Source: Schmidtea nova
Taxonomy: Eukaryota
Length of the DNA: 64,000 bases
NCBI GenBank assembly: GCA_044892505.1
Contig: CM097883.1
Location: forward strand, 276,644,001-276,708,000
Direction: 5' to 3'
Every line of letters begins with the position of its first letter. Positions within the stretch are counted from its first letter, which is position 1. The notes beneath the pieces are model-generated. The model worked only from the letters and a program-made list of their open reading frames with translations. It made no database searches and was not told the origin of the DNA. Below, in pieces: positions 1 to 55,192 of this stretch. Position numbers and translations under genes: made by a program.

Positions 1-1894
1 CTTCCACTATATCTGGTCTATAGCTGACCACCAATGTTTCGCGTGTTTCGACTTCCTTATATACCAAAGACGAAATCACGTATGATTTTCCGTTGGCCTC
101 CAATACGCCATAGTAAGGGAAGTTTGAAACTGATGATTGGTGTACCGGTTTCCCGTCGTATTCTTTTATCCGAGGTACCCAATTTCTCTCTGGTCGCTGC
201 CAAAAACTAGGGTCTTCATTGTCCAAATCCTGGGGTATCTTTGCTGAATTTCCCGTTCCAACGAAATCCCCTTCTCTTATAATAATAGGTTCGCCCTTAA
301 CCTCCGGAATCTGTTCCATATCGGGTGGGATGAATGCTGTTTCGATTAAATCTTTGTCTTCCGTCGAGATGGGATTTGGTACTTTCTTTTTGATCTTTAG
401 ATCTTGTAACCTTACAACAGGTTCTTGACTTTTCTTTGGGGGTGACTTTTCTACTGAAGTCAATTTTTTAAAAGTCTTAGTAACTTTTTCCAAGAGCTTG
501 TTCTCTTTCTTTGGTGGATTTTCTGGCACGATCTTTGTAATTGTACGGCTGTCTCCGTGTAAAGTTAAACGCATCTCTGTTTGCTCCTCACCCTCGCTTT
601 CGCAGGTGGCGTAATCGTCTTCATCAGCTAAGGATATAGCTGGAGGGGATAGTGATTCTTCCTCAACTATCTTTTGCAATTTGGTTGATAATGGTTGTTC
701 CTGGGGTAAGCTCTCAATAGCTTTCCTTTTACTCGTTTCTTGTGGCTGTATTGTATGAACCATTTTGACTTCTGATGTAATCGTCCCACTACGATTACCT
801 GGGGTAATGTCATCTACCCAAACTTCTCTCAGTTTAAGGTAAATATTACGTGTCGTTTCCACGTCATTTTCCGTTTTCAGATCTGAACGGTTTAGTTCTT
901 CTTTTTCGAGAATTGACTTTGATAAATACGCGAGTCGATAATGTCCGTTACATTTCTTTAGTTCTCTCGCTTCCAGGCATTTTGCTGCTCCTAGTTCTCT
1001 AATGCCCAATACTCGTTGAGGGTGTAACTGGACTGCTTCCAAGAAATCGTTGACTTGGAGACCTATTAGAATTTTCCCATCACATAATTTTCTAATACGG
1101 TCTGCGCAATCCTCTCCATCAAATTGTCCGATGATTTCTTTTTCGGTCATACCATGCACGTGCGATTGGTAATGTTTGACCTGGTTTCTGGGTGTAACCA
1201 CCGTGTTTAGTATTAAATCACCACAGTAGTTTGCTATCGAAACAGCCACCAAAGCTGGCTTTAAATAATCTCGCAAAGTTGCGTAATGCGCTGCAACAAA
1301 TATTGACAATCTATCTTCTTGATTGGGGTGCAGATTCATCCGAACAAAGGATTTGAATGATTTGAGATCGTTCTCATTCACATTATAGGTCCAGGCAGGT
1401 TCATTTTTCCACAATGATTGCACTGCCTTGCTAGGTTCCAAAATCTCTAATACCACAATAGTATTATATCCGTCACATTGGATGGAGATATTCTTTTCTC
1501 TGCCATCTCCGTTACTAATTTCTAGAGTTGATTCTGGTTGAAGTAGGATGGGTCCTGTGGCTCCTGCCATGAAGATTGTAAAGGGTTTATTGATCGCGTG
1601 AATCAGGAGATGGTGAGTAAATGTTGATCTGTTAAATTCCGCCATGTGTTCAGTCAACCGGGTGTTCTCACGGCTGGTAATTGTGACTATGCACATTTGT
1701 CTCTTAGGCGATCCGAGAAACTTAAAATTGTTTGGGATGCCGGTGCAGTGCCCGTAATACCAATAGCGACGACCTTTCCGTGCTTCTGCGGATATCGCTT
1801 TTTCGATGTTTCGATAAATCAGTTTTTCCTTCTGTACTGTTTGCACATCGATAGTGCTATAACGCTGCTTGTATTGTGACACTTGATGCTTCAT
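1..1894 (-). CDS. Accessory ORF (>630 aa, open to window edge) with a REXO4/ISG20-like DEDDh exonuclease fold lacking the Exo I acidic residues
   Basis: Manual translation from ATG 1894 (MKHQVSQY...) shows no stop down to position 1; the frame is also open upstream to the TGA at 2083-2081. Residues at about 818-1306 read ALVAVSIANYCGDLILNTVVTPRNQVKHYQSHVHGMTEKEI...DGKILIGLQVNDF...LAYLSKSIL...ENDVETTRNIYLKLREVW, paralleling REX4-family motifs. Confidence 0.8.
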   Translation of the reverse strand, partial: MKHQVSQYKQRYSTIDVQTVQKEKLIYRNIEKAISAEARKGRRYWYYGHCTGIPNNFKFLGSPKRQMCIVTITSRENTRLTEHMAEFNRSTFTHHLLIHAINKPFTIFMAGATGPILLQPESTLEISNGDGREKNISIQCDGYNTIVVLEILEPSKAVQSLWKNEPAWTYNVNENDLKSFKSFVRMNLHPNQEDRLSIFVAAHYATLRDYLKPALVAVSIANYCGDLILNTVVTPRNQVKHYQSHVHGMTEKEIIGQFDGEDCADRIRKLCDGKILIGLQVNDFLEAVQLHPQRVLGIRELGAAKCLEARELKKCNGHYRLAYLSKSILEKEELNRSDLKTENDVETTRNIYLKLREVWVDDITPGNRSGTITSEVKMVHTIQPQETSKRKAIESLPQEQPLSTKLQKIVEEESLSPPAISLADEDDYATCESEGEEQTEMRLTLHGDSRTITKIVPENPPKKENKLLEKVTKTFKKLTSVEKSPPKKSQEPVVRLQDLKIKKKVPNPISTEDKDLIETAFIPPDMEQIPEVKGEPIIIREGDFVGTGNSAKIPQDLDNEDPSFWQRPERNWVPRIKEYDGKPVHQSSVSNFPYYGVLEANGKSYVISSLVYKEVETRETLVVSYRPDIVE

Positions 1895-2080
1895 ATCTGA
1901 AAGAAAAATAATTAACGTTAATATCAGATATACTGATAGGCCAATATTGGCTAAAAAGAAATGCATAAATCTCGATTTACGGGATCTACTTATGCTGTAA
2001 GTTAATGCTACTCGGAGCTCAACAAGATTATAGATTTTAATATATATATAAATACAAATATGCGATTTTATCTGTAATTG

Positions 2081-2242
2081 TCATAATCTCGTCATCATAA
2101 TCCCATCAACCGACTCAATGGCCTGACTGAAGAATAGTTTCATCCAAACTCCCATTGCTATCAATGTAGTGATCATAGCTAATACTGCTGACGTAATAAT
2201 CCATACCCAACGGGTAATTTTCCCAAGTGAGTAATGGGGTTT
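2081..2242 (-). other. Transmembrane-anchor peptide encoded in the -1 frame relative to the polyprotein end
   Basis: The -1 frame reads KPHYSLGKITRWVWIITSAVLAMITTLIAMGVWMKLFFSQAIESVDGIMMTRL*. It opens just before A-AAC-CCC (2242-2236). Confidence 0.6.
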
Positions 2243-5200
2243 ACTTCATTAACTTCACACTGACAACTTTTAATATAGCTTTCTGTTGATACTGTTGGTT
2301 TTACCATTTTCAATCCTTTCAATCTCTGCCATATTGCAGGATGAATGACGTAACTTTCTTTCCGTATCAATGATGTAACCGATTTCGTTGTCGTCGATGA
2401 TTGTGGTAATTTCAAAGAGATAACTTCATAAAATACCTCATTCCATTCATCGACTCCTGGCTTTTGTTTATTATTCATATAAGTGATATGAGCTTCCCAC
2501 TCCACTGAGCTGTTCCACTTGAGATTTTGTTTCTCAATATCTTCATTTAGCCACAATTCTTGTACTATTTCCTTGTCGGAATGGATTTCTATCTTTACTC
2601 TATCCACTCCTTGTTTTGGTTGGCTGAAGGTAATCATACCTTGTTGGATATTTATTCTAACTTTCCTTTTGAAATCTGCTGTCTTCAACTTCCATTGTGA
2701 CTTTGAAAAATCTGACCATCGTCCAAACATAAAATGTTGAACAAGTATATCTAACAGATATTCCTTTTCTGCTCGTAAGTCCTTTATGACTTTCACTCTT
2801 GTGTTTGAATCCAATGTAAAATGGAAACAACGTCGTTCGCAAAACGAGAACTTGAATTTTGTATCATTTTCAGCTAATGATATTATCCTAAATTCCTGGA
2901 AAGATCTTCTAAATGCGAGATCTTGAATTTGTACCGCTGTTGGAACAAATGTCTTTACACAGGATATAAGGCAACTTATTATTACCAAAAACGTAACTGA
3001 TTTTGGCACGCCTCTTGATCGTAATGGATATCTGTCTGAGACTGGTTCTGACCCTTTATCCTCCTTTTTCTTAATCGGATCTTTCTCCGTGACCGCAACT
3101 TTCTTGCATCTGTTAGCATGTACCATTATTGGTTCAGCTTTTCTATTTGCTACTAATTGCAAGATTAAATTCGTGTCTGTGGTTCTCAAAACCTCATATG
3201 GTCCTTTGAAGTTTCTCATTAATTTAGGTGATAAGCCCTTTTTATTATAATGGCTTTCCAACATCACCTTGTCTCCAACTAACATGCCATGTCCTTTGGC
3301 TTTCTTATCATGATAATCTTTCGACGCTTCCTGACTGAATTTTATACTAAGACCTGCTTTTGTCCATGCTTCTTGCATTCTTTCTCTCATTTCCATGAGA
3401 TAATCCTCTTGGTCTAAATACTGCGTTGCTTTTGGGAAAAACAACAAGTCTATAGGCATTTTACTTTGCCTTAAATACATGAGATAGAACGGCGTTTGTC
3501 CCGTACCCTCATGAACAGCATTTCTGTATGCGAATAAGCATGATGGAATATGTATATCCCAATCCGTTTGCCCTGAATTTACGTATGATGCTAGCATATT
3601 TGCGAGCGTTCCGTTAAATCTCTCTACCAATCCGTCTGTTTGTGGATGATACGGAGAGGTATTCAATTTTAAAATGTCGAAATAATCATTTATTCCTTTT
3701 AACAGATTACTCATGAAATCTGCTCCTCTATCTGTTAGTAGTTTTGTAGGTACTCCATACCTAAAAACAATTTGCTCTACGAAAATCCTGGCTATCGTAT
3801 CTGCCTTGTGATTCGGTATCGGATAAGCCTCCAGCCATTTTGTCAGGTAATCGCAAAATACCAATATGTATTTGTTACCACTATTTGATTCTTTGAATGG
3901 CCCTAAAACATCCATCGCCGTCATTTCCATCGGTGTGGATGGTACTGGCATTGGTTTCATTGGCACATGAGGTTTCTTCCCCGTATTTCTCCTGGTGATA
4001 CAGATCTTACATGTCTGACACCATTCCTGTACGTCTTGTTTTATTGTCGGCCAGAAATATTTCTGCTTCAACCTTGACAATGTTTTCCTGGAAGACAAAT
4101 GCCCTCCCAGTGCTCCATCATGATATTGTAACATCAAGGCTTCCCGATATTTCTTAGGGACCATTATGACATTATCCCTTACGTCTACATATTTGACTAA
4201 TCCTTCTTCTAGAATAAATTTGTCTCGATTTTTCTCCCAATATTTATTAAATTCCGTCGGTATGAACTTTGCTTCTAAAGCCTGTCTGATTTGGTTTATC
4301 TCTTCATCCGATTGTTGTGCTGCCATTAAATCCGCGAGTCTGTTTGCTTCTCTTGTAAGTGCGAAGATTGTTCCTTCTAATCTTCCTTCTTTGATATCTT
4401 CTGCTTCATCACCTTGGTCCATTCGCGAAAATGCATCTGCATTCCCATTTTGATGTCCTTTTCGGTAATGTATTTCGATGTCATATGGCTGCAAGATCAA
4501 TGCCCATCTAACCAACTTTGATGTATCCATAGTATGCTTTGTTAACCACTGTAATGGTCTATGATCCGTATACACAATGATCTTTCGACCCCATAAATAT
4601 GTCCTGAATTGGTGTATAGCATACACAATTGCTAATGCTTCTAATTCGATAACTGCATAATTCTTTTCATGTGGTTTTAATCCTCTGCTAGCATACGCTA
4701 TGGCATATTCGTCTCCTAGGTCATCTCTTTGACCTAACACAGCACCAATACCCCGAGTGCTGGCGTCCGTCATGACCAAAAATTGTTTCTCAAAATCTGG
4801 AAACCGTAATATAGGAGGTTCCACGAGCATCCTCTTTAGCATATCAAATGCTTCCTGTTGCTCTTTTCCCCATACAAATTTGACATTTTTGCCCTCTAAT
4901 TGTGTCAGAGGAAATGCTATTGCCGAAAAGTTCCTGATGAACTTTCTATAATATCCCACTAAGCCCATAAACCCTTTTATATGTTTGACTGTCTTTGGCT
5001 CTGGAAAATTCTTTGCTTTCTCAACATTTGCTGGATCTGGTTTTACTCCATCCTTCGAGATAATGTGACCGACATAGACTACCTCTGATTCGGCCCATTT
5101 ACATTTCGATGGTTTTACCTTAAGATTTGCATTAATTAACCTTTTGAATACGTCCTCTAAATGTTCTAAATGTTTTTCCAAATCTGGAGAAAATACTATG

Positions 5201-8200
5201 ATGTCATCTATGTATACCATTGCATGATGAACATCCATTAACATTAGATTCATGGCTCTTTGAAACGTTGCCGGCGCTCCTGTGAGACCAAATGGCATTA
5301 CTGTATATTCGAAGTGTCCAAGGCTTGTAGAAAAAGCCGTAATTGGTATTGTCTCCTCTTTTAACTTGATTTGGTAAAATCCCTTCTGAGCATCCATCAC
5401 TGAGAAATATTTTGAATTTCTCATGCGTCCGTAAATGTAATCCAGTAATGGTAATGGGTGACTATCCTTGCAAGTTGCTTCGTTTACCATTCGATAGTCG
5501 TTGCATAGTCGTACCGTTCCATCCTTTTTGGCCACCACTATCATTGGTGACTGGTATGGTGATTTACTATGCCTGATGATGTTATGTTTTAACATCAGTT
5601 TTACCTGCTTATCGACAGGTTCTTCCAAGCTAAACGGAATTCGATACGGTCTCAGTTTTATTGGTTTCATGTTGTTAAGAACAATTTCATGTTCCAACAA
5701 GTTCGTCTTTCCCAGATCATATTCGTGCTTGGCGAATACTTGATCATATTTTCTTAATAACATGTTGACTTGGATATTCTCTCTTCGTGAAAGAGCTTTG
5801 CTATTTGCCGTTGGCGCATCATAGTACTCGATGTCTGATTCTCTATTTTCTGCCTTTATTGTCAGGACAGATCCTCCATTTGGTAATTGATCCGACTTTG
5901 ATACTCTCCCTACTCTTGTATCTGGGTACAATTTTAATGGTTTTATATCTAAATTGGCTACCCGAATTGGTATTCTGCCATTTTCAACTTTACCAATGCT
6001 ATGCGTAATTGGTAGATTATATTTTGCTGAGAACCTTTCATCTGGTTCGAATACAACTTCTCCTTCCCACTGTTCGCTAGTGGACACGAAACATACTGTT
6101 TCTGCTCTGGGTGGTATTATCATCGTATGGTCGATGAAAACTGTATCATCATTATAAACTTTTCTTTTCTTACCGATTGATCTAACTAACAATCCGGTAG
6201 CACAGTCAAATACAACTCCTTTTAATCTTCTTAAAAGATCCATTCCTAGTAGACATTCTACTGGACAAGTTCTCATGACTATAATATCATGACGAAATTC
6301 TTGGTCACATAGCTTGATGTTACAAGCTAGAGTACCAATAATATTCAATGATGTGCCTGTAGCACCTGTTAGCGAAACTCTTGAGGTTTCCATTGATTCC
6401 AATTCTTTTTGATTTAATAGTGTTGCCTCTATGATGGTGCCGTCTGCTCCTGAATCTATCACTGCATTAACTGTGTGTCTGTTTATTTTTATCTTTATCA
6501 TGGGTTTCTTATCCAAGTTCACCCCATTTGCCATCAAAATAGTAGCATGCGTTATCCCGATGGTATTTGCTCTGAATTTCTCTGCTTCATCTTGTTCGGT
6601 ATCACTCAATTTTGGATTATATTCCTTAAATTTAGCTTTTATTGCTTCTAACGACTCGATAGGATACAGTTTCCCTTCATTTTCTAACGATAATGATATG
6701 CTTTTACCAGTCTCTCGAGCATCTTTGTCGAGAATTTGTTGATGTTTAGAAATGTACATTTTGTTTCTTGGAGTGGTTAAAGCATAATTTTGTTTGCCCT
6801 CTCCTGATGTCTTTTGAAACTCTGGCGATTCCCCCTTTGGCGCTGTTGGCAAGCTTCTAAGATATGGTAATTGCATATATCTTGGGCTTCTTTTCAATCT
6901 AGGTGATGCTGTATTGATTGTAAATTTCTGGTCTGCACTATCGTATTCATCTTCTGAAATCATACTTTTGTCGAAAATCTGTTTTGTCGCTTCGTAAGGT
7001 GGTTGATAATCCCGATATTTCATTTTCCTTAACTGATGATTCGGTTTTTTATTGTAGTTTCTTTTTCGACTTCTACTTTGCCTCTGAACTGTATTAAGAG
7101 AGTCTCCATTACCTCCTCCTTCCGAATTGTTATCGTCCCGATAACTTGTATTACCCTCCATTTCGATTCCAATAATCTCGTGTTTTACCAAGCTTCTCTG
7201 TTTGATTGTCTTTATTTCTTTACGATGATGTTTAAACAATGCAAATTCCGCACACATAGGACACAATCCTAGTATCAACTTCCAAGACCATCCACCGATT
7301 TTGAATATACTGTATGTGGAGATTAATTGTGTTATTATTAACTTTAGAATTACGAATATTGCATATATTCCTGAGCAGCCTGCCACGAAAATACCAAAAT
7401 TGGTAAACCTTCCCCATATTTTCATCATCACATTTTTAGCTGCTTCTTTATAATGATCTGGACCGAATAATAAATTGTAATCTGGTCTCATTTCGTTTGC
7501 TTGGTAAATTGTTCTTATGATTTCAGTGATACCTCTTTCTCTTACTTGAGGGAATAGCAATGTCTGTCTTGCCTCCTCAATGTCTGCTGAAGTGTAAATT
7601 CCTCCTTGTGATAATTCATCGAGTGATTTAAATTCCATGTTTTCCTCGAGTTTCGTGACTTCCAATGTTTCCACCTTTCTATTAGATGGTTTTCTGTCAG
7701 GTAATGAGATCCATCTATCATTTACCTTGTATAACGGTGATATTGCTGGATTGCAAATTGAAGGTTGAGGCTTTTGTTTTTCATCCAAAAGTCTCCTCGT
7801 AACTGGCATTACAAATCGTATTTTGTTTTGATATGACACTGGTAATTCTAGAGTACATTCATTATACCGAGTTAATTGTACCTCTATGGGTTGACATTGA
7901 TAGCTGTATATAGCTTCCCCCATAATTCTGCCAAACATTCCATCTTCTAGCAACATAGGTGTCACTAGATCCGGATTCACAATTGATATCGCTAATCGAT
8001 TTCGAACTATTTCGCGATTTAGTTTGCAATCATTGAGTATTACTTCCTGATACATTTCCTGCATTTGTCCTTGCAGATCATGATATAAATAATCTATTTT
8101 ATTATTTATATAGTTCGTGATTTTGATATCCTGGCTGTGAATATTCTTGGCTTTTTGGATGAATGTTTTTGACAAATATAATCCTTTATAGTTGGTCTCA

Positions 8201-11200
8201 TACACCACTTTTCCGCATTTTGTCTTCTTATCTTTTCTGACAAATCTGATTGCATCTTTCTTATCTTCTGATACTAATACTAGAGGTGTGATTTCCTCAC
8301 TAATATCCTCTTTTTGCTGTTTGTTGATCCTTTTCAACGTCTTTTCTTTATCCCAAATTCTTTCTCTTTTGGGTAAATCTCGATACTTTGTCCCGTTCAA
8401 CTTATGGAAATTAATTTTCTTTAGTAATGACAATTCGCAATGGTCTAGTATTTGATCGTATAATAATGTAATGACCCCTGTTCTGCAGCTTCCAAATTTC
8501 GCAAGGCACTGAGGGTGTGCCATTAATCTTCCTGATAATACATCGAACGTTCCTTCGTATTCTCTTAATTCGATTGAATAGTCCTCGATATCTACGACAA
8601 AACTTACCAACTCCGATCCGCGAGTTTTCTTTCTTCCCGTACAGGTACCATCTGATCCGATTGATCCTCCTCGTGTAATGGTTACTCCCAGTGTTTTTCC
8701 TACTTCCGCGGCGATGGTTACCTCGTTATCGATTCTTAAAGTACCTTTTCGAAAGGCGTCTAGACAATCCTCTGGCAATATGTTGACAGGTCTAGGTATT
8801 AGAGTGGCTGATAGAAAAGCTGTATAGCTGTGTGAACCACAATAATATTCAAACGTTGCTCTTTGGACTCTACATTCTCTTATCTTAGTTCTGAAGAATT
8901 CACTTTCTTGGTAGACATAGTATTCGACCTTTTCTCCTGTTTGGACCTTTTCTGGATGTGCCTCTTTGCACTCAATTGCATCTACGAGCGAATATATCCG
9001 AGCTAACTTTGGATCACTGCAATCAAACGCTGTCATTGTGTTTGTCTGTTTCATTATCCCCATCATTACTAAAAACATTAATATCATATTCGTCATATTC
9101 CCCATTCCTCCATTTTCGAGGTGGTTGTTATTCATAGCCTCTTCCACAAATTCATATCGTGGTTTATGTTTCTCCTCTTCCCAGAAATTATTTTCACTCA
9201 TCCACGTTCCGAGATAATGCTCCGTTATCTCCGTGATCTGGTCTATTTCTCGATTAATAAGCTTCTTCTCATTGCCTGCGCGGGCTAAAGCATCTTGAAT
9301 CAACATAGATAATGCTGTCACTATTTTTCCTTTAGATAACCCATCTTGTATGAGTGTCTCTAACATACTCTGTATCTCGTTTTGCGGTACCCCTCTAGGT
9401 AATCTCCTCATCGTCTTCGCGATTGACTGTGTTACTTTATCCACTTGAATTCCTTTAATCCGAGTAATCTGCCATTCTGGCTTTAATATTCCTATGATCT
9501 GTTTTAATCTCTTCCATGTCAGAGATTTTTCTGGTATATGTACACCTTCGTCTCTCATATCAACATCCCTGGCTATTCCTGACAGAGTTTTCATCTGAAC
9601 CTGTTTAATGGTTTCTTGGTTTAATTGCTCCGTTGGTGGAGGTTTCATTTGATCTTTCCTAGGCCTTCCTCGCCTATCTTTCTTTGTCTGCCATGCTGGC
9701 CTGATAGTTTCTACCGCCTGAGAAGTTGAAGCTCCCACGTTAGTTTCCTCATTATTGAGTCTGATTTCCTCTTCTCCGTGATTATCGGCATCGATATCTA
9801 CATTAAATGGTTGTGTTTCAACATTACCAGTGACCATTTCATCTGGTAACCGTAATGCTGACCATTGAGATTCAGGTGGCTCTACGGGAATGATTGCTAC
9901 CGTTGTAGTTTCAAAAGGTAGACATCCCACATCTACTAAATATTCATCATCATCCACTTGTCCTCCATGAATCATAATCAAGAATATACCGGTAGTCTGC
10001 CCAGTATCTATTAAATCCTTTCTCAACGTTATCACTTTGCTAAAACAACGATATAACCTCGTCATGGGTTCTTTTCCCGATATTCGAATGTCTAAAGTTA
10101 TCATGCCTTGTCGATGTGCTTGATGACGTATTGCTGTTCCATTTTTTCTTATTAACATTTTTATTTCTGTTTGAAAAGAACTAGTTTCTTTTACTACAGG
10201 TAGTAATATAGGAATTATATTCTCCAATGATTCTACTGGTATGCGCAATACCAACATCCAGTCTAATATTTCCTTGATTGTTTCTCCATCCCTCGGAGAT
10301 TTCTGCAGCTCTATCTTCAGACGTTGCTCTATTTGTTGGACCTCCTCCAACTGTGCAATTTCCATTTGTGTGAGTAGAAACACACTGTCTTGATCCACTA
10401 CTGGGACCGATATTCCTGTCAGTTTCGTTGTGAGTTTCGTTACCCTTCCTGGTAATACACCATTTTGTAGTAGTGTTTCCCCAACTACTAACTTTTCTCC
10501 ATATAAATAAAAATCATATCTATTATGTTTCAATTTCATCATTGTATCTGACAACTTATCTGTTCGACATCTTACATTCATGTCGATGTTAAACTCCTGC
10601 TCCTGAGGAAGTTTTATGTTTAAATGCGAATCCTGAAGATCCCATTCATGCTCCATTGCAGTTCCTATCTTTCGTAGGATTTTATGTATGTCGCTATTAT
10701 ACCTTGGATCATCTTCGACCTGAGATATTAATTGTAATATCTTTCCAATTTCACTATTCTTGATATCACCTTGTGATAATTTCTCTAATTCTCTAGTCAG
10801 TCTCTGCTGATACTCATATCTGGAATCCACCAGTTTTAAACATTTTGCTAGGGTATCTGACCCTTTCTTGGCCTTTGTTTCCTTGAACAAAGCCTGGTCG
10901 AACTCGCTCAGTATGGTACTCATACTGGGTTCGTCATCATTATCAGAATTTGTCTCTGATTCTATTACCTCATGATTCTCGCTGCTGGAATCCATGGGTT
11001 CACTATTTCCTTGCTCATCTGTGTAAGCATCATGATTTTTCTCAGCTGAAATCATCAAAACTGTTCCTTGCCCAACTGTGTGAGCATCATCGCTTTCCTC
11101 AATGGGATTCATTATAACTGTTCCTCGCCCATCCATGTGAGCATGATTTTTCTCAGCTGAAATCATAAAAACTGTCTCTTGCCCAACTGTGTGAGTCTCA

Positions 11201-12468
11201 TTTATTTCTTCAATTTTATTCATCAAAACTGTTCCTCGCTCATCTGTGTGAGCATGATTTTTCTCAGCTGAAATCATAAAAACTGTCTCTTGCCCAACTG
11301 TGTGAGTCTCATTTATTTCTTCAATTTTATTCATCAAAACTGTTCCTCGCTCATCTGTGTGAGCATGATTTTTCTCAGCTGAAATCATAAAAACTGTATC
11401 ATCTCGATCCATTAGCCGTGCTAATCGATTTTTCTCCTCCTGGATTTCCATTTCCAGTTGTTGCAAATACGTCAATTCTTTATCGTGATTGACCATGAAC
11501 GTAGTTTTCGGCTTGCTGACATTACCACTATTGGTAATCCTACTATTCGTATTATTACTCTGATTTTGAGGACACGACCTCAGAATATGCCCGAATTTTC
11601 CACATCCGTGACATTTTATCTTCCCTGATGAATTCACATCATCCCTTTTAATATTAAAATTCCCATTCGTTGGGAGATTCCTAACTCTACAAACGGAAGC
11701 AACATGCCCTCTGCGTTTGCATTTATCACACTGCAAGTTCGTGACTCTACAGTTCTCAACACTATGATTATTCATACCACATTTAGTACACTGAATACCC
11801 CTACGAGTATCAGCTACCTTCTTACTGTGGCAATCTTTTGATATGTGCCCTTTCTTATGGCAGTTAAAACATTCAATTGCTGGCTTCTCATTATTTACCA
11901 TAAATGATGTAGCTTTTTCTAAGCTGCTTTCGATTACGACAGCTTTTCTTGTTAATTCCCAAAAATCATCTCCCGTGTGGAGAATCAATGCATTTCTCAT
12001 TACATTTGTGAATCCAGCTAATAATTGGTCTTTAACCATAGCTTTAGTTGCATCATTCCAGGTAGTTCTGAGCCCAAATGCTCTTTCTGCTAATAACAAT
12101 AATTGATAGGAAAATTCTCCTACATGTTCATTTGCATTCTGCTTCCTGTGATAAAATTGTTGTCGGAAAATTCTACTTGAATCTCCCGGTAATATTCTAG
12201 CCGTTAGTGATTCTCTCATCTTTTCCCATGTACCTGGTTTATCTGCTGCTGGTAACGCCATAATATCATTGTAATTTTCCCTTGCCATACCCTTAAGGTA
12301 AATTGGCAGTCTTTGTATCATTATTGCATCTGGATACCCATAGGCCTTTGCCATCTGATAATACTCTGACATAAACTCCGGAAATTCCCCTGGATCTCCG
12401 CTAAATGCCTTGACAGGTAAAGCGGGATATCTAGCAAAAACATTATTCTCTTCAGCCATGTCCTCCAC
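2179..12468 (-). CDS. 3429-aa Gag-glycoprotein-Pol-ectodomain polyprotein
   Basis: Uninterrupted ORF in the track, with recognisable Gag, viral glycoprotein, PR, RT, RNaseH and IN motifs in that order. Confidence 0.95.
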   Translation of the reverse strand: MEDMAEENNVFARYPALPVKAFSGDPGEFPEFMSEYYQMAKAYGYPDAIMIQRLPIYLKGMARENYNDIMALPAADKPGTWEKMRESLTARILPGDSSRIFRQQFYHRKQNANEHVGEFSYQLLLLAERAFGLRTTWNDATKAMVKDQLLAGFTNVMRNALILHTGDDFWELTRKAVVIESSLEKATSFMVNNEKPAIECFNCHKKGHISKDCHSKKVADTRRGIQCTKCGMNNHSVENCRVTNLQCDKCKRRGHVASVCRVRNLPTNGNFNIKRDDVNSSGKIKCHGCGKFGHILRSCPQNQSNNTNSRITNSGNVSKPKTTFMVNHDKELTYLQQLEMEIQEEKNRLARLMDRDDTVFMISAEKNHAHTDERGTVLMNKIEEINETHTVGQETVFMISAEKNHAHTDERGTVLMNKIEEINETHTVGQETVFMISAEKNHAHMDGRGTVIMNPIEESDDAHTVGQGTVLMISAEKNHDAYTDEQGNSEPMDSSSENHEVIESETNSDNDDEPSMSTILSEFDQALFKETKAKKGSDTLAKCLKLVDSRYEYQQRLTRELEKLSQGDIKNSEIGKILQLISQVEDDPRYNSDIHKILRKIGTAMEHEWDLQDSHLNIKLPQEQEFNIDMNVRCRTDKLSDTMMKLKHNRYDFYLYGEKLVVGETLLQNGVLPGRVTKLTTKLTGISVPVVDQDSVFLLTQMEIAQLEEVQQIEQRLKIELQKSPRDGETIKEILDWMLVLRIPVESLENIIPILLPVVKETSSFQTEIKMLIRKNGTAIRHQAHRQGMITLDIRISGKEPMTRLYRCFSKVITLRKDLIDTGQTTGIFLIMIHGGQVDDDEYLVDVGCLPFETTTVAIIPVEPPESQWSALRLPDEMVTGNVETQPFNVDIDADNHGEEEIRLNNEETNVGASTSQAVETIRPAWQTKKDRRGRPRKDQMKPPPTEQLNQETIKQVQMKTLSGIARDVDMRDEGVHIPEKSLTWKRLKQIIGILKPEWQITRIKGIQVDKVTQSIAKTMRRLPRGVPQNEIQSMLETLIQDGLSKGKIVTALSMLIQDALARAGNEKKLINREIDQITEITEHYLGTWMSENNFWEEEKHKPRYEFVEEAMNNNHLENGGMGNMTNMILMFLVMMGIMKQTNTMTAFDCSDPKLARIYSLVDAIECKEAHPEKVQTGEKVEYYVYQESEFFRTKIRECRVQRATFEYYCGSHSYTAFLSATLIPRPVNILPEDCLDAFRKGTLRIDNEVTIAAEVGKTLGVTITRGGSIGSDGTCTGRKKTRGSELVSFVVDIEDYSIELREYEGTFDVLSGRLMAHPQCLAKFGSCRTGVITLLYDQILDHCELSLLKKINFHKLNGTKYRDLPKRERIWDKEKTLKRINKQQKEDISEEITPLVLVSEDKKDAIRFVRKDKKTKCGKVVYETNYKGLYLSKTFIQKAKNIHSQDIKITNYINNKIDYLYHDLQGQMQEMYQEVILNDCKLNREIVRNRLAISIVNPDLVTPMLLEDGMFGRIMGEAIYSYQCQPIEVQLTRYNECTLELPVSYQNKIRFVMPVTRRLLDEKQKPQPSICNPAISPLYKVNDRWISLPDRKPSNRKVETLEVTKLEENMEFKSLDELSQGGIYTSADIEEARQTLLFPQVRERGITEIIRTIYQANEMRPDYNLLFGPDHYKEAAKNVMMKIWGRFTNFGIFVAGCSGIYAIFVILKLIITQLISTYSIFKIGGWSWKLILGLCPMCAEFALFKHHRKEIKTIKQRSLVKHEIIGIEMEGNTSYRDDNNSEGGGNGDSLNTVQRQSRSRKRNYNKKPNHQLRKMKYRDYQPPYEATKQIFDKSMISEDEYDSADQKFTINTASPRLKRSPRYMQLPYLRSLPTAPKGESPEFQKTSGEGKQNYALTTPRNKMYISKHQQILDKDARETGKSISLSLENEGKLYPIESLEAIKAKFKEYNPKLSDTEQDEAEKFRANTIGITHATILMANGVNLDKKPMIKIKINRHTVNAVIDSGADGTIIEATLLNQKELESMETSRVSLTGATGTSLNIIGTLACNIKLCDQEFRHDIIVMRTCPVECLLGMDLLRRLKGVVFDCATGLLVRSIGKKRKVYNDDTVFIDHTMIIPPRAETVCFVSTSEQWEGEVVFEPDERFSAKYNLPITHSIGKVENGRIPIRVANLDIKPLKLYPDTRVGRVSKSDQLPNGGSVLTIKAENRESDIEYYDAPTANSKALSRRENIQVNMLLRKYDQVFAKHEYDLGKTNLLEHEIVLNNMKPIKLRPYRIPFSLEEPVDKQVKLMLKHNIIRHSKSPYQSPMIVVAKKDGTVRLCNDYRMVNEATCKDSHPLPLLDYIYGRMRNSKYFSVMDAQKGFYQIKLKEETIPITAFSTSLGHFEYTVMPFGLTGAPATFQRAMNLMLMDVHHAMVYIDDIIVFSPDLEKHLEHLEDVFKRLINANLKVKPSKCKWAESEVVYVGHIISKDGVKPDPANVEKAKNFPEPKTVKHIKGFMGLVGYYRKFIRNFSAIAFPLTQLEGKNVKFVWGKEQQEAFDMLKRMLVEPPILRFPDFEKQFLVMTDASTRGIGAVLGQRDDLGDEYAIAYASRGLKPHEKNYAVIELEALAIVYAIHQFRTYLWGRKIIVYTDHRPLQWLTKHTMDTSKLVRWALILQPYDIEIHYRKGHQNGNADAFSRMDQGDEAEDIKEGRLEGTIFALTREANRLADLMAAQQSDEEINQIRQALEAKFIPTEFNKYWEKNRDKFILEEGLVKYVDVRDNVIMVPKKYREALMLQYHDGALGGHLSSRKTLSRLKQKYFWPTIKQDVQEWCQTCKICITRRNTGKKPHVPMKPMPVPSTPMEMTAMDVLGPFKESNSGNKYILVFCDYLTKWLEAYPIPNHKADTIARIFVEQIVFRYGVPTKLLTDRGADFMSNLLKGINDYFDILKLNTSPYHPQTDGLVERFNGTLANMLASYVNSGQTDWDIHIPSCLFAYRNAVHEGTGQTPFYLMYLRQSKMPIDLLFFPKATQYLDQEDYLMEMRERMQEAWTKAGLSIKFSQEASKDYHDKKAKGHGMLVGDKVMLESHYNKKGLSPKLMRNFKGPYEVLRTTDTNLILQLVANRKAEPIMVHANRCKKVAVTEKDPIKKKEDKGSEPVSDRYPLRSRGVPKSVTFLVIISCLISCVKTFVPTAVQIQDLAFRRSFQEFRIISLAENDTKFKFSFCERRCFHFTLDSNTRVKVIKDLRAEKEYLLDILVQHFMFGRWSDFSKSQWKLKTADFKRKVRINIQQGMITFSQPKQGVDRVKIEIHSDKEIVQELWLNEDIEKQNLKWNSSVEWEAHITYMNNKQKPGVDEWNEVFYEVISLKLPQSSTTTKSVTSLIRKESYVIHPAIWQRLKGLKMVKPTVSTESYIKSCQCEVNEVNPITHLGKLPVGYGLLRQQY
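2236..3000 (-). other. Post-integrase extension: hydrophobic signal-like segment, one or two FN3-like domains, Ser/Thr stalk
   Basis: RYPLRSR then VTFLVIISCLISC; IKDLRAEKEYLLDILVQ...GRWSDFS (FN3 L-x4-Y-x3-V pattern and WSxWS-like motif); sequons NDT and NSS; stalk PQSSTTTKSVTS. Confidence 0.55.
3140..4330 (-). other. Integrase domain
   Basis: HDGALGGH...CQTCKIC; MDVLGP; TDRGADF; LVERFN; GPYEV; no chromodomain seen. Confidence 0.93.
4425..5760 (-). other. Reverse transcriptase and RNase H domains
   Basis: RLCNDYRMVN, MPFGLTGAPATFQR, VYIDDIIVFS, TDASTRGIGAVL, ELEALAIV, TDHRPL, NADAFSR; catalytic residues intact. Confidence 0.95.
6200..6510 (-). other. Retropepsin (aspartic protease) domain
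   Basis: VNAVIDSGADGTII ... CLLGMDLL. Confidence 0.9.
7200..9105 (-). other. Chuvirus (Jingchuvirales)-like fusion glycoprotein embedded in the polyprotein
   Basis: Signal-like MILMFLVMMGIM, then AFDC, CRVQ...YYCG, GSIGSDGTCTG, CLAKFGSC, YETNYKGL, YINNKIDY, GRIMGEAIYSYQCQP, CTLELPV...FVMPVTRRLL, GGIYT, and WGRFTNFGIFVAG leading to a TM segment. The motif order matches the chuviral G family as I recognise it. Confidence 0.85.
9653..9684 (-). other. AT-hook motif
   Basis: KKDRRGRPRKD fits the R-G-R-P core with basic flanks. Confidence 0.6.
9886..10623 (-). other. Two putative ubiquitin-like (beta-grasp) modules separated by a helical segment
   Basis: FYLYGEKLVVGETLLQNGV (10432-10623) and LIMIHGGQVDDDEYLVDVG (9886-10104) resemble the ubiquitin/SUMO LIFAGKQLEDGRTLSDYNI segment; neither ends in GG. 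Confidence 0.4.
11010..11397 (-). repeat. Coding tandem repeat, 111 bp / 37 aa, about 3.5 copies
   Basis: TVFMISAEKNHAHTDERGTVLMNKIEEINETHTVGQE occurs twice identically, then a diverged third copy and a partial fourth. Confidence 0.97.
11570..12468 (-). other. gag: Gag: capsid-like domain plus four CCHC zinc knuckles
   Basis: FSGDPGEFPEFM...LPIYLKGMA; CFNCHKKGHISKDC, CTKCGMNNHSVENC, CDKCKRRGHVASVC, CHGCGKFGHILRSC. Confidence 0.9.
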
Positions 12469-12549: not shown

Positions 12550-13358
12550 TGTTCGGTTCGTATCAGTGGTTTACGACGAACACAGAAATATAAATATATA
12601 TTTGATACTTTAGTTTGATTATCGGACTCCAAACGATAATCCGCTTATTAATTATAAATAAATTATATGTTTTAGGTTGTGTGTAAAGAAAAACAAGATC
12701 TAATTCCTTTTAATAATATGTATTGTGAAATATGTAAATCAATGTACAATATAATAAAATAGCTGCTAAGCAAAAGTTAGAGAATCGGTTATACAAACCG
12801 TCCTAAGATGTTTAAGAACGAAAGCTGGACCTAAAAGGCTCAACAGCTCCGACTAAATGAAAGGACACAAGATGAGGGGTTTCCCTGTAGTTTAACCGCG
12901 ATAGTGACAACCCAGAATTGGTTGTCACTGTGACTTAATAATTTTCCCTTCTAATAATTTATTATTTAACGATTTTGCTGAAGGGGAAAAATAGTAATAC
13001 AACTATTTCCCCGTGATCGATTTATAAGATTTAAAACAAAACTAGGAAAATTACCAGCTACTAAAGATTATTCCAATTTAGGGAAATTATCACGAACGAA
13101 ATTCAAGCTAAGCTTCTTGTAATACTTCTGCCGTAAAATTAATTTCTCCAATTCACAAATTTGTCAAACTAAAATTCTAAAATTCACTTCGGTAAAATTT
13201 ATGTTCTGTAAACACTTATGTTTCTCTCTCTACTTCTGTCAAAATTACTTTCTGTTTCAACTGATTTTGCAATCAGTTTATATACAAATTATTTTCTCTC
13301 ATGTAGGTCTAGACGACCACCTATTACTAACTACGTGTAGGTCGAAATTGACCTTACA
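12550..13358 (-). repeat. Putative 5' LTR (~809 bp)
   Basis: Ends in ...AACA just before the PBS; candidate start TGTAAGG at 13358, beyond which the sequence becomes low-complexity AT. The outer boundary is unconfirmed because the partner LTR is off-window. Confidence 0.6.
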
Positions 13359-13580
13359 AAATATTACTTTTAAAGTAATTTATTATTACTATATATATCT
13401 TATTATTACTATTTAAATTTCTTATGTATTTATTTATTACTATATTTATTATATATTATTTAATTATTACTGTATTTAATCTATATTTATTTATAGTAAT
13501 TATTTATTTATTTTCTATTTATCTATTTATTTATAGTATTTTTTAATTACTATTTATATTTATTTATTTACTTATAATAT

Positions 13581-15605
13581 TTAATTACAAAAACCCCGAG
13601 ATCCCTTGATCTCGAACCCTAACAGTCCTTCATCCTGTGACATTTCTTCATGAAATCTCTTTCTTTGCCGAACTCTTTGTTGCTTATAGTCAGTATTAAT
13701 ATCACATTTTTTAGCCAGCTCAGTTGCTTCATTCTCAATCTGTTCGAACTCAGATTCAAATTCACTACGCATGTTTTTCATATCGTTTTGAAATAGTTGA
13801 ATCAAATGAGAAGCTGTTGCCAAATCAATACTACTTCTCTGCAAATATGTGGACAGACTGAAAGCCTTATCTAGCACTTTTTTCCATAATATTAAAAGAA
13901 CTAAGAATTTGTATGCATAAAGTGTTACAAGAATACCCTTTGCCTCAGCCACCTGTTTAGAAGTACAGTTTTTTAACTCACCATCCACAATTCGTTGCAG
14001 GGCAACTAATAGTGCTGGTAAATTCTGCAAGACTGCATCTACAGCTGATTTCCTGGATGCCCATCTGGTTTCGCAAAGTCTTTTTAGAGTTAATGTAAAC
14101 GATTTTATATGATTGCATTGTTCTTTTAATATTGAAAGACGAGGTAAACTGCCAGAAAAAAATGTATAAAAACTTTCAAGGGTTCCAAAAAATAACTGAG
14201 TTTGAACATTGGAGGTTACTGTGTCAATTAGAATTAAATTTAAATTTGGTGCACAACAGTGGGTAAAGAGCGCATTTGGAGCAATCTGCCTAACTCTTGC
14301 TTGGAGACCTGATATTTCCCCCGACATTGTGCTAGCTCCATCATATGACTGACCATAACTCATAGTTATTGACAAATCCAAGTTTTCAATTGCTGAAACA
14401 AAAACGTTGAAAAAATCTGGGGCACTTGCTCCCGGTAATTCACTGAATTTTTTAAACCTCTTTACTGCATCGCCATTTTCTGTTACATATCTTAAAGATA
14501 AAGAAAACTGGTCAATGCTACTTATATCAATAGTTGAGTCAACAATCACTGCAAAATACTTAGCTACTTTGATTTCATCCACAATATTTGATAGAATCTG
14601 AGATGATATGGATTGTATCAGATCATTTTGTATATCGGGTCTGAGATATGTTGCATTTCGATCAATCATTAATAAATGTTGTTCCAATATTGCATCATTT
14701 TTAGCCAACAGTTTAATCAGTTCAAAGAAATTCCCTTCGTTTGTCACTGGTGAACCTAAGCCTTGATACTCACGATGGCCACGGAATGCCAATCCTTGTT
14801 TTCCCAAAAAAAGTACTGCATCAATGATACGTTTTAAAATCATCCTATTTTTTCTATTTCTTTCTTTTCTGTTGTCAGAAGACCAGACAACACAATTCTA
14901 TCGTTAAACAACCGGAATTTTGTAAGAAATAGTTCTTTCTCTGCTTTTTTGTGACTTTCGCTACTTTCATGTTTTTCAATTTTGTGCGTGCCTTAAGCAA
15001 AATTCTTGCAGCCAATATTTGGATCACTTCAAGTATCGGATCGACTAGCAAAAAGCCAACAAGCAAAACAAATCATTATATTAGCTTTTGGTGAGTAGAC
15101 CAGCCAATGTCTATCAATTTCTCGACCACCTTTTACTTGTTTCTTCTTATACCAATTAGCACTGAAATGACGTCCAGTTTCATCTTTTGGGAAATTTTCA
15201 AATTTATCTTTAAGACCCAGCTGACACGGACTTAACTCAAGTAGTGCACGAACTAGTTCTGGCGGCACAGGTTTGTCACAAAACAGATGTGGATCTGTTG
15301 GGTATTCCATGTTTGGGTCAATAACTGCACGAAGTCTTATTCTAACTGTGTCATCTTCGTCCTCCACAATAGGGTCTGTTGACGTGATTAGGCCTACTGT
15401 TGAATCAGAACCCACTTCCTGAATAGTCACGGCAGCCGGAGTTGTGGTGTTGTTATCAACTCCTAGATTTGTTGTGAATTCTTTTTCTGACACGGAAGAC
15501 GTCGCAGACATTGTTGGATTGCTGAATGAAAAATATGCATCCAATTTTGTATATTTTGAAGATTCTCTTTCACGATCTTCGACTTCTTTTTTCCTCTTTT
15601 TATCC
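13581..15605 (-). pseudogene. hAT (ZMYM1-like/DUF4371) transposase, frameshifted and truncated at both ends
   Basis: TTF-type zinc finger WLVYSPKANIMICFACWLF; KHESSESH in a shifted frame; LGKQGLAFRGH, DSTIDISSIDQ, YDGASTMSG, HCCAP (HCxAH altered), CETRW; no C-terminal dimerisation domain. Confidence 0.88.
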
Positions 15606-17820
15606 TGGTGGGTTGTTGATCGTCAATATGACCTTGACGTTACTATGGCTCTCATCAACAACTCAACACATAAAACATTTAAACTACCATCTTGTTACCC
15701 GTCACTATGTAACGTTGGTACTGTAACAAGTGGGTGGGTATTCGCAATCAGTGAGCGTCGTCAATACGAAACTATGATTGACCGGATATCTCCTGGGTCC
15801 AAGGGCTACCGATAGAAGGTTTAATGCCCATTTTGTCCCTTCTTCGACGATTTATCTGTAAGCTTTCAATAAAAATTTTCATCGGAAATTCAACATAAAC
15901 ACTCTACATAACTATAAATTCATTATTGCATCCAAATAAATTATTCCGAGCATCAAAAACACTAATATAACCCTATATTTTACCAATATTGCATTTTATG
16001 ATAATTAATACATAAAATATTATATTTTTATAGAAAAATTTTAATCTGCATTTGAAATTTAAGAAAAAATTTTAATTATTACCGTAATTTTATCGAGTTT
16101 AGAAATAATAAAAATAAAATTTCCGTTTGTTTAAAATTGCTAATTTAATCAAAAGGACAAATTTACTCAATTTAAAAATTATATTAATTTTAAATGTAAT
16201 TTTCTGAATTTTTCACTAAATTGATTAATTAACGATTTCTATAGTTCAGATCAACAAGAAATGGATCTCCCCAGAAACTACGAAGTCAGAGGAAAATTCT
16301 CCCACCCAAAATGGGTCAAACCAACTAGAATTCCAGCTCCTACGAAGCAAAATTGCCCGCTCTACCGACCAAGTAAAATTTTGATTATTTCCGAATTATA
16401 ATTTATTTTGAACAATTTTAGAAAATTTCTTGAAGAGAATATGTTGAAACTGGCCCTTCAAGCACTGTAAACCGAAAAATTCCTTGCCGGAGATTCTTAT
16501 CCCTCAAACTGAATGACCATCAATTTTTATCAATAAATTTTTAAATAATTTTTTTTCGTCTTTACTCTTTTTCGTTTGAGTTTTTATTATTTTTATGAAA
16601 TTTTTGTAAATGGGAAATTAAAATAAACTGTAATGTAAATGGCCTATTTGATTTTTACTAAGTTTGGCTGGGTATATTTAATTTTATATGGTATGGTTGA
16701 ATGATAGATATAAGTGAATGAAATTTTTGTATGGGTTTTCTGGATGTATGATGCCGACTAACATAACTGTGTAGAATTTTCAGTATGGTTTGCTTGTGTG
16801 TATATAACTATTGAATGCTAATAAATGATTCTGTGTATGTGTGTATATTGTATTTTAAATATATGTTGCTTGTGTATTAGTATGGGAAATGTTATTGAAT
16901 GAAATGGATGTAATTTTTTGCAAATAGGGATGCGTTATGATTTTTGAGATATCGTGGGGGTATTTATAATATACTATATATAAATTATATAAAATATTTT
17001 TAAAATTAAAATAATAATAATAATTTTTATATTAAAATAATAATAATAATTTTTATAATATTTTTATAAATTTTAGATTTATAATTTTACGAAAATAATA
17101 CAATAATAAAATTTCCAATTTTTATATTATAAATTTTTATAATACTTTTTATAAGTTTTAAATTTATAATTTTATGAAAGTAATATAATAATAAAATTTC
17201 TAATTTTTATAATATAAATTTTTATAATCGAATTTTTATATTTTAAGTATATATATATATATAGTAAAAAAAATTTTTCCTATAAAATTTTGAAATTTTG
17301 GATTTTTTAAAATGATAAAATTTTCAATATAATAATAATATTTTCGATTTAAAATTTTTATGGGTTTCAATATAAGTTTTGATTTATAAATTCTTAGGAA
17401 TTTTATAAAATAACAAAATCTTTTATATCATAACAATATTCGGAGAATTTTTGGTTCACAATTTTTCATTATAAAAATTTTTCCAATATAATAAAAAGTA
17501 AATTTTTATTTTTTGATCGAAACGAAATCCACATCATAATAAATTTCTCATCCATAGATTTCGAAATCTAAATAAGCATTTAATCTAAAAAGTTTTTATA
17601 TGCTAAATAAAAATAAAATAAAAATAAGTTATAAATTTTTCAACGAAATTTTTTCGACATCGAATAAAGTTAATTTCGGTTTCATTATTATTCCATCGGA
17701 TTTGAGCATTAATTCGAACGATTTACTTTTTAATATCGGTTTTTAATATTCTGGATCTTGGATGAGAAGAAAATTATTGTGAAGGTGAAGGCGAAGGACG
17801 AGTAAAATGTTTTTGCATAA
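15606..17820. repeat. Copy A of an unclassified dispersed repeat (collinear with 53924-58690)
   Basis: 15606-15860 closely matches 53924-54178 (shared CTCCTGGGTCCAAGGGCTACCGATAGAAGGTTTAATGCCC); 16897-16970 matches 57659-57740; 17761-17815 resembles 58631-58685. The right boundary is approximate. Confidence 0.7.
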
Positions 17821-52644: not shown

Positions 52645-55192
52645 TATATTTATGGAGAAGGAAATGTGTCTGGTCGTAAAACCGCAGACATTTGTTGGTA
52701 TTGTTAAAATAAACAAAATCAATTTAAAATGCACAAATCAATAAAAATACGAAAAATGATAATTAAAATGCAAACATTAATTAAAAATTTATGATATTCA
52801 AAAATAAAGAAGGGGAAACTGGTATGGGGTATGCCATATGATGAGACGAATTCAAATATAAGTATATAAAATTAAAAAGGGAACCCGGCAAAAATATGAA
52901 AAATTTCCAAATTACTTACTTTTTAGGAAACCCGGGGCATCAACAAATCTATTAATTAAAATAAATGGACTAATTGAAGGGTGCCCCGAGGAAAGAAGCC
53001 GCAAACCCACTTAGCGGCAACTCCTTATTTAGTTGATTAATTGAAGGGTCTATTAAGGCGTGCCAAAACTAATCGAAAAATTACTATAAAATGAAAGTCA
53101 AAATTGCCGTACTCGCCAGGTGGTCGAAGAAAATTTTAAAAGAAATGAGCGAGAAATCTGAAAGGTGGAAAAGAAAGCTGAAACGATAATATGTTTAAAG
53201 TATCGATCTATCAATTTCTTGCGTACCAGAAAGGGAGATATCCCATTGGGTCTTCTACCTTAGTGCAGAGTACAGAACATTTATTACTTTCTGTGATTTA
53301 GAGTGTTGATATTGAATCGAAAAAATAGAAATTATTGTGTTGCGTCTAATTTATTTTGTGAACGAAAGAACACCGGAGTCTGATACTAATCGACTACTCA
53401 TTAATAACTCAACACATTTATGTTTGCATGTTTGATATTGCTGTCTTTCTAAATCCTTATTTTAACGGTGCAGAAATTATAAAAGTAGGCTGGATTTGGT
53501 TAGGTAAATCTGTTTGATTTTTGAAGAAAGTTTTAGTCATTTACGAAAGGTTCTCTTATAATTGTTGTATATCTGTTAATGTGTTTCTGATGTTTCTAAT
53601 GATTGCGTATATCATTTTTTAACGTGGGAGGATATTTTAGGTACCATAGCAGGATGTTATTTTAGAGTGATCAAATAATTGTTGATTTCACCAATAGGTA
53701 CTCGTTGCAAGCAAAGTTAATTAATGAACGCTGCATCCAGAACTATATTTGCTAGAGTAATCTCTTCGGGTTCACGACCTGCCGATAGAAGACATGAACT
53801 CGATTTCGATGTTATGTCCCTTTTTAATTACAAAGTGTTTTTACCATTAATAAATCTAGCTATTTTTATCATACTATTGATTTAGTCAGAAGACGAATAA
53901 AAATTCATGTTAACAAATTCGTGGTGGGTTGTTGATCGTCAATATGACCTTGACGTTGCTATGGCTCACATCAACAACTCAACATACTAAACATTAGATT
54001 AACCATCTTGTTGCCAGTCACACTGTAACGTTGGTAATGCAACAAATGGGTGGGTATTCGCAATCAGTCAGCGTCGAAAATTCGAAACTATGATTGACCG
54101 AATATCTCCTGGGTCCAAGGGCTACCGATAGAAGGTTTAATGCCCAATTTGTCCTTTGTTCAACGATTTAACTGCAGATATATATTTAATTAACAAAAAT
54201 GAGCTAATTTCATCAATTAAAATTTATTAATTTGTCCCAATTAATCATTATGCACGGTATTATCTAAATTCTCGGGAATTTTCGCACATTCACTCTATTC
54301 ATAAGCTCGTACTCAAACATCATCACAAACTCAATTCGGGAATCAATTATTCTTTAGAAAAATACACATAGTTGGAATATTCACTATTTAGACTCGAATT
54401 TTATTATTCTCGTGATTTTTCTAAATTATTATGTTTTTAATATTAAAACTCTACGTAAATTTTATTTACAGCATTGTCCTATTGTATATCTTGCTTATAA
54501 ATTAGGATAATGAATTTTAATTAAAATTATCTTTTTGAGTTTTAAAACTTTGCCGAGGCCTTAGTAACGACTTTGATTCAGTAAAACTTTCCCTATACAG
54601 TTTTTAGACATCGCATTTTGGTGTTTTTAACATTATTTAAATTTTTAATCTCAATTAAAATTAAACAAGAATTCAAAAAAAAAATTTATTTATTAGTGAG
54701 TATTTTTAAAATACTCTTGTTTAAAATAATTTTAAAAAATCAACTTCAAACAAACGCAACTTGATTGGTTGGCGTTTATATTATGGCATTTTAATAGTAT
54801 ATGATGATCGATTTTCCGTCTCCATTCGTAATTTTTCACTAAAAATAGGTAAATATAAAAGTTCAGGGTTTTATTTCCTTTATTTATTTCTATTTTCTTT
54901 TTAAAGTCAAAACAGAGTATCATCAGCGTCTGAAACGGAAATCCCAATGGAAATCTCCCTGTCAACATCACATTTGACATTTTCTCGATAAAGAAAAATC
55001 TCTGGAGTTTATGCCAATCGCATCGATAATCAGAAACGGGAGGTTCCGAATTAAATGAAGGTTGATCATTTTGGCCCTTCTCACAAGGGAGATCATGGAG
55101 AATCCTAGCTTCGACGGGAAAAATTCGGAACTATTTTCAATGCCCTTGATCTAATGAACAGATGACATTTGTTAACTTGATTTTACTAATTA

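Follow-up and report, generated by a model that had tools for sequence, protein, structure and literature searches.

Background

Errantiviruses with the gene order GAG-ENV-POL and an envelope of the HSV/gB type are described from Nematoda, Bryozoa and Platyhelminthes in PMC13524379. Extra open reading frames (ORFs) of LTR elements are, according to PMC5408684, typically expressed from spliced messages, and PMC10309623 reports expression from a spliced message for CERV, the extra ORF of Cer1. Suppression of a stop between pol and an env-like ORF is described for SIRE1 of soybean, a plant element of the Ty1/copia type (PMC2194720). A 2026 review of stop codon readthrough (PMC13517186) states that type I readthrough works in mammals and yeast with no need for RNA structure, that in plants and yeast any of the three stop codons can be read through in a type I context, and that type II readthrough, found in CTFV and VEEV, combines UGA-CGG with a stem-loop; the same review reports type I from plant viruses and assigns only types II and III to animal viruses. 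The readthrough elements of MoMLV and CTFV are reported to shield transcripts from nonsense-mediated decay (PMC10141005).

In this study, we analyze a retroelement contained in a 64,000-nucleotide stretch of genomic DNA from Schmidtea nova (hereafter the window). An initial annotation had proposed double recoding at a junction near the 3' end of this element, in which a -1 frameshift at the heptamer A-AAC-CCC would add a transmembrane (TM) anchor to the polyprotein and readthrough of UGA-CAA-UUA would then carry translation into an exonuclease-like ORF. Using sister copies, diverged lineages of the same element family and a distant relative, we find that a single recoding event is probably real and that the double one is not.

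Results

The element and its genomic setting

The element is encoded on the minus strand and is a 15-kb LTR retroelement with an envelope, a young member of the Ty3/gypsy group (Metaviridae), as its LTRs, target duplication and PR-RT-RNase H-IN order attest. Its 5' LTR (TG...CA; 12550..13624, minus strand) is 99.8% identical to the 3' LTR, which lies to the left of the window (L031 6561-7642), and the duplication flanking the element is 4 bp long. A single polyprotein frame (2179..12459, minus strand) runs through gag with its CCHC knuckles, an envelope glycoprotein, PR, RT, RNase H, IN and a post-integrase membrane protein; in the window copy it comprises 3453 codons and is cut off early at a TAG (2181-2179). 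The envelope, a fusion glycoprotein of the Monjiviricetes type (gB/class III-like; Pfam PF24664, E 8.6e-91), lies between gag and pol at 7204..8298 on the minus strand. The genome holds at least about 86 copies with 96% or more ORF2 identity, plus several diverged lineages; with the window's lineage designated A, a gB-type glycoprotein is also present in lineages C, D, E and G.

Several further features were observed around and within the element. It interrupts a transposase gene that we take to be hAT-like (window 13625-15858 and L031 5958-6560), and a 256-nt end segment is seen again at 53919-54174. A sequence resembling a primer-binding site follows the 5' LTR at 12549-12525 and presumably corresponds to the 3' end of tRNA-Trp. 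The gag region contains three in-frame tandem repeats of 111 nt at 11031-11400.

The post-integrase membrane protein (2084..2995, minus strand) consists of a signal-like hydrophobic stretch after RYPLRSR, an ectodomain, a TM helix at about 2209-2146 and a short tail. It is a second membrane protein, fused behind the integrase of an element that already has an envelope, and it matches no family; a Pfam search with the ectodomain gave no match, and a single-sequence model of it (pLDDT 41.9) is too poor for use. The ectodomain may be fibronectin-like. Among variants shared between lineage A copies, omega is 0.15 for the ectodomain, 0.21 for the TM and tail and 0.05-0.11 for ORF2, values that point to purifying selection on all three.

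The membrane anchor lies in the polyprotein frame

The features on which the proposed frameshift was built are present in the window. The zero frame ends at the TAG named above, the heptamer occupies 2236..2242 (minus strand) in the right phase, and the -1 frame, open from 2245, encodes a hydrophobic helix whose Kyte-Doolittle mean over 19 residues reaches 2.05, and is closed by a TGA (2083-2081) with CAA TTA after it. The frameshift itself is contradicted by the sister copies. We compared 69 of these, 29 being the best DNA matches and 40 being chosen to include unusual frame lengths, so that broken copies are over-represented; one lacks the region, which leaves 68 informative sisters. All 68, including the nearest at 99.9% identity, are one base longer than the window copy, and in 64 of the 68 the polyprotein frame continues through the TM helix to the TGA. 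The four exceptions are two premature stops, one lost TGA and one copy (L118) in which the heptamer run has itself lost a base. Likewise, 10 of 10 copies checked from lineages B, C and E are stop-free over the 200 codons before the terminal stop, with the TM in the polyprotein frame.

The break, for which the initial annotation had allowed a simple one-nucleotide indel, lies not at the heptamer but at about 2200-2215 (minus strand), some 30 nt downstream. The heptamer is kept in 65/68 sisters without being a frameshift site. A Y of C is non-canonical for X-XXY-YYZ slip sites, and no stable structure was found 3' of the heptamer (-10.0 against -11.7 +/- 2.7 kcal/mol in shuffles, in a model without pseudoknots). 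The frame break is private to the window copy and may be either a real mutation or an assembly error. The longer form is found in the main contigs of four runs from one study, contigs being prone to drop rare variants, and accounts for all of the depth in X1 and X3, for 508.9 of 519.5 in X4 and for 347.3 of 864.7 in X2. Because the sisters carry the anchor in the polyprotein frame, we conclude from these alignments that the frameshift is not programmed and that a one-base loss confined to the window copy cuts off its anchor. The suggested switch between secreted and anchored products falls with it, as does the predicted junction peptide EVNPHYSLG. A frameshift called on one copy of a repeat must be checked against sister copies.

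A stop context shared by four lineages

Lineages B, C and D close the polyprotein, after the TM and tail, with the same TTA-TGA-CAA-TTA-C that stands at 2074..2086 (minus strand) in the window. With one representative for each of A-D, 13 of 13 bases are equal, against 7/57 in the upstream flank and 3/53 in the downstream flank. Identity of B, C and D to A is 78-83% in the integrase, 40-45% in ORF2 and 21-33% in the ectodomain, and judged against these values the stop context is kept far beyond what descent explains. TGA-CAA-TTA is retained in 67/68 sisters, and 29 of the 30 diverged copies with the motif use TGA as their stop, L040 having TAA instead. Of the 773 stop triplets within the element only one has the hexamer CAATTA after it, and a genome count of the 15-mer gave 135 occurrences against 5 for the reversed control. 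Four 15-mer matches (L052-L054 and L064) were set aside as chance occurrences with no element around them.

The TMV-type leaky-stop context noted in the initial annotation is therefore conserved in diverged lineages. The window reads TGA CAA TTA CAG ATA where TMV has UAG CAA UUA CAG AUU, and all of A-D have a stop followed by CAR-YYA, as in type I contexts, with UGA in place of the UAG of the strict definition.

The linker between the stop and ORF2

In the window, the 186 nt (62 codons) from the TGA to the ATG at 1894 are open as described (1895..2080, minus strand), in frame with ORF2 and with a slippage-prone TA run near 2051. The second hydrophobic run reported there, FFLANIGLSVYLILTLIIFLS, is present with a Kyte-Doolittle mean of 2.41; it need not be a real helix, because it is a pyrimidine tract read as F, I and L. 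The openness of the linker, put forward as something that should be conserved, is likewise found in diverged lineages. Linkers are in frame and stop-free in 59/68 sisters and in 18 of the 30 diverged motif-bearing copies (A 5/7 with the window included, B 2/7, C 7/9, D 4/7; L157 and L158 are without the motif region), at lengths of 186, 192 or 195 nt in A, 102 or 108 nt in B, 102 or 105 nt in C and 96 nt in D. The other 12 are broken by one- or two-base changes, TA-run expansions or a stop, mostly in copies decayed elsewhere, and lineage B is the weak one, with 5 of 7 linkers broken. We read the broken linkers as decay and infer the active state, most copies of B-D being decayed elsewhere too.

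In the four representatives the stop's own frame contains 0 stops against 2-8 in each other frame. A linker of the window's composition is stop-free in 1.1% of dinucleotide shuffles (range 1-8% over the four representatives), and for C and D taken together, with A left out as having been picked for its openness, the probability of open in-frame linkers arising by chance is 2.8e-4, an optimistic figure that assumes independence of lineages sharing ancestry, the linkers of B and C being alignable. No RNA structure is shared among the A-D linkers (hairpin z -0.62, -1.80, -0.05 and +0.55). A motif resembling GCTC-n-GAG-n-AGC was seen by eye after the TA run, at 2021-2004 in the window and at equivalent positions in B, E and G, and seems to be kept whether or not a lineage has the readthrough motif.

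Variation within lineage A adds a further constraint. The linker carries 7 shared against 23 single variants (p 0.00018 against synonymous sites), its synonymous variants dividing 3 to 8 (p 0.057), and its omega of 0.55 is based on 7 shared variants, too few to inform on protein-level selection. This depletion argues that the linker is constrained at the nucleotide level, a pattern that a non-translational cis element would give too. Changes in TA-run length occur in 12 sisters, 9 of them frame-breaking and 3 frame-preserving, all on terminal branches, and coding stop alleles are also unshared (0/12). As far as allele sharing can tell, the unshared TA-run variants show constraint on length, not on frame, and they do not name its cause.

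ORF2 and its own start

ORF2 (1..1894, minus strand) encodes 654 aa, ends 67 nt to the left of the window and comprises an N-terminal beta domain, a DEDDh exonuclease-like domain (about 1342-830, without the Exo I acids) and a low-complexity tail. A direct Pfam comparison gave no match and a word-based search found no homologue. A profile search of a representative library gave 183 unnamed proteins that grade into RNase_T exonucleases, and a model with pLDDT 67.5 matched ISG20 in Foldseek (E 8.5e-4; TM 0.63 by target length) and, weakly, cupin/AlkB-like folds; an Atlas RNase_T match at 0.84 is a lead only. Profiles and model together indicate a DEDDh (RNase_T/ISG20) exonuclease-like fold. The Exo I D-x-E is missing in 6/6 aligned ORF2 sequences, which have AAHY, SAGF, SAQY or ASHY (matched by eye) at the site where two homologues, P0040 and P0049, have DIEC and DCEF. 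ORF2 looks like a catalytically dead DEDDh exonuclease, and, with none of the six retaining the Exo I acids, nuclease activity is unlikely. The weak cupin/AlkB-like fold matches come from the N-terminal half (window 1894-1345). Scanning metagenomes with the ORF2 alignment produced 178 pattern matches, of which 0 were confirmed.

Two nucleotides before the ORF2 ATG, a pyrimidine tract ends in an AG (1898-1897; tract and AG 1897..1915, minus strand) that we take to be acceptor-like from the splice consensus. This AG and the ATG are kept in 68/68 sisters, and such a tract and AG precede the ORF2 start by about 2-16 nt in every lineage examined, in differing phases. Because every lineage examined has the acceptor-like AG before the start, a spliced mRNA is probably the main source of ORF2.

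Lineages without the motif

Lineages E and G are young and intact and have the same envelope and ORF2, with the polyprotein ending in TAA or TAG followed mostly by GGG. Anchored copies (34 of 42) have 4-11 stops in the 80 codons past the stop, with ORF2 in any of the three frames, and an open in-frame linker is present in 0 of the 34. A fusion is not generally required, because E and G replicate without motif or open linker. In the unrooted tree of ORF2, A, B/C and D are spread out and E and G group together on a single branch.

Some copies of G (L072 and others) show, in the 30 nt after the stop, a TAA/TAG-GGG of type III-like appearance and a donor-like GTAAGT 23-26 nt on, and copies of E have GTAGTG at +26/27 after the polyprotein stop. 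An intron that runs to the ORF2 acceptor may begin at these donor-like sites. Readthrough of TAR-GGG coupled to such a splice was considered for lineage G and rejected, being in frame in 16 of 22 G-type copies and out of frame in 6, 5 of which share a change; it is impossible in 12/12 E-type copies. E and G (L072-L089 against L049-L051) are nearly identical in integrase and ectodomain and clearly different in ORF2, at 80% in the exonuclease-like part, a sequence pattern that suggests exchange of the 3' module.

A distant relative with a different readthrough context

A scan of metagenomes with the integrase gave six loci, in only one of which, L160 (64% identity), the junction is visible; a scan of viral contigs with the integrase alignment gave none. 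L160 has the layout of the window element (RYPLRSR, signal-like stretch, ectodomain, TM and tail). Its polyprotein stop is UGA-CGG-UGU, followed by a hairpin (z -2.92, 0/200 shuffles; stop and hairpin at L160:3047-3150), 33 open codons and an in-frame ATG. ORF2 profiles gave no direct match to L160. Its post-stop stretch matches the N-terminus of the protein P0077 (58% over 47 aa, E 2e-12), which is itself an ORF2-profile match (E 1.1e-9) and in which the hairpin region is conserved at the protein level. Among the 1020 stop triplets of these loci, such a readthrough context is found after 7. L160 is one decayed locus among the six, and its frame past the stop closes after 87 codons. That this junction has a readthrough context of another class is not readily accounted for by a promoter or a splice element.

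Discussion

The observations taken together make readthrough at the polyprotein stop probable. In the fuller reading that we favor, and to which we give nearly as much credence, the family's TGA-CAA-TTA-C would be a leaky stop that leads into ORF2 through the open linker, the frame break in the window being a private loss. In the family, the polyprotein frame passes unbroken through the TM and ends at the TGA. There a near-cognate tRNA would decode the UGA with an efficiency of a few percent, comparable to that of type I motifs elsewhere, and the minority of ribosomes that read on would translate the open linker and enter ORF2. Free ORF2 would for the most part be made from spliced mRNA, with the site ahead of its ATG as acceptor. 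In the readthrough product, the nuclease-like domain would be tethered to the membrane protein of the element. In addition or instead, continued translation could clear the 2.4-3.5 kb behind the stop, moving termination from that distance before the RNA 3' end to near the 3' LTR, and so spare the genomic RNA from nonsense-mediated decay. We lean toward RNA protection as the purpose over a fusion protein, because the lineages differ freely in the length and amino acids of the linker but preserve its frame and its openness; the two uses are not separable here. If readthrough is real, this one genome, with young lineages with and without the signal, offers a natural comparison of a fusion protein against the shielding of a long genomic RNA from decay.

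The main competing explanation involves no recoding: the 13-mer would be a non-translational cis element (an internal promoter or factor site, or a splicing or packaging signal) that happens to overlap the stop, ORF2 would be made only from spliced mRNA, and the open linker would be inherited or a by-product of nucleotide constraint. An acceptor-like AG and an ATG in all lineages examined, in varying phase, fit it, as do the depletion of shared synonymous and non-synonymous variants alike in the linker and the fact that E and G do without the motif; extra ORFs of LTR elements are also typically expressed from spliced messages (PMC5408684; for CERV of Cer1, PMC10309623). It leaves unexplained, however, why length changes at the subfamily level are multiples of three, why only the stop's own frame is open (0 against 2-8 stops), why the motif equals the TMV context and why the corresponding place in L160 is taken by a readthrough cassette of another kind, and we therefore consider it unlikely, though the most serious challenge to readthrough.

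The remaining possibilities are weaker still. Other decoding of the TGA, by selenocysteine insertion, RNA editing or host reassignment, would suit the near-uniform use of TGA in the diverged motif-bearing copies (29/30, with TAA in L040), yet the A-D linkers have no shared hairpin and the conserved bases are those of a type I context, which makes it very improbable. We give practically no credence to the original proposal of a -1 frameshift at A-AAC-CCC followed by readthrough. The heptamer is in the right phase and kept in 65/68 sisters, and L118 has a one-base loss of its own within the heptamer run; against this, the anchor is already in frame in 64/68 sisters and in the other lineages checked, the heptamer is about 30 nt away from the length difference and has no stable structure 3' of it, and a Y of C is non-canonical.

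Comparison with known systems

The window element resembles errantiviruses such as Smed_errantivirus_1 in its gag-env-pol order, its gB/chuvirus-like glycoprotein and its many near-identical copies (PMC13524379). A class III-like glycoprotein between gag and pol, as in GAG-ENV-POL errantiviruses with a gB-type env, is present here, and the likeness is one of gene order and glycoprotein. One flatworm env row in supplement file 3 of the same paper shares YYVYQES, REC, PRPV and DGTC with the window element (compared by eye, unaligned). Unlike the GAG-ENV-POL errantiviruses described there, the window element adds a post-integrase membrane protein and ORF2; the main text of PMC13524379 mentions no readthrough, exonuclease or fibronectin, and its supplements may bear on the point. 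An exonuclease-fold ORF downstream of pol also occurs in the bdelloid LTR elements Juno and Vesta (PMC5408684). Their ORF3 is of the DEDDy type with intact catalytic residues, whereas the window's ORF2 is nearer to RNase_T/ISG20 (DEDDh) and without the Exo I acids; PMC5408684 makes no mention of readthrough.

As to the junction itself, SIRE1 is like the window element in being an LTR element whose pol is separated by an in-frame stop from an ORF further downstream (PMC2194720). The two differ in that the window's env lies upstream, its stop follows a TM anchor, and a linker of 32-65 codons, an acceptor-like site and an ATG of its own precede ORF2. Within the literature surveyed, with subscription papers and most supplements lying outside it, SIRE1 is the only case of readthrough at the end of pol, and no description of the window's junction was found. 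The stop context resembles TMV type I, in which the stop is followed by CAA UUA CAG AU and no downstream structure is needed (PMC13517186), as none is shared in A-D; it is unlike TMV in having UGA rather than UAG and in belonging to an animal retroelement rather than a plant virus. The UGA CGG UGU of L160 is the type II context listed for CTFV (PMC13517186, Table 1). The hairpin in L160 begins about 12 nt on, counted from the first base of the stop, and this cassette stands outside the window's lineage in a single decayed locus.

We find it somewhat easier to believe than to doubt that readthrough links the polyprotein to a 3' pseudo-exonuclease gene in a clade of animal retroelements with envelopes, which would have arrived at this solution more than once (UGA-CAA-UUA in A-D and a coltivirus-type UGA-CGG with hairpin in a distant relative), and that ORF2 is expressed twice, free from spliced mRNA and membrane-tethered by readthrough. 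If so, a type I readthrough signal, of the class that PMC13517186 calls absent from animal viruses, would be at work in a virus-like element of an animal.
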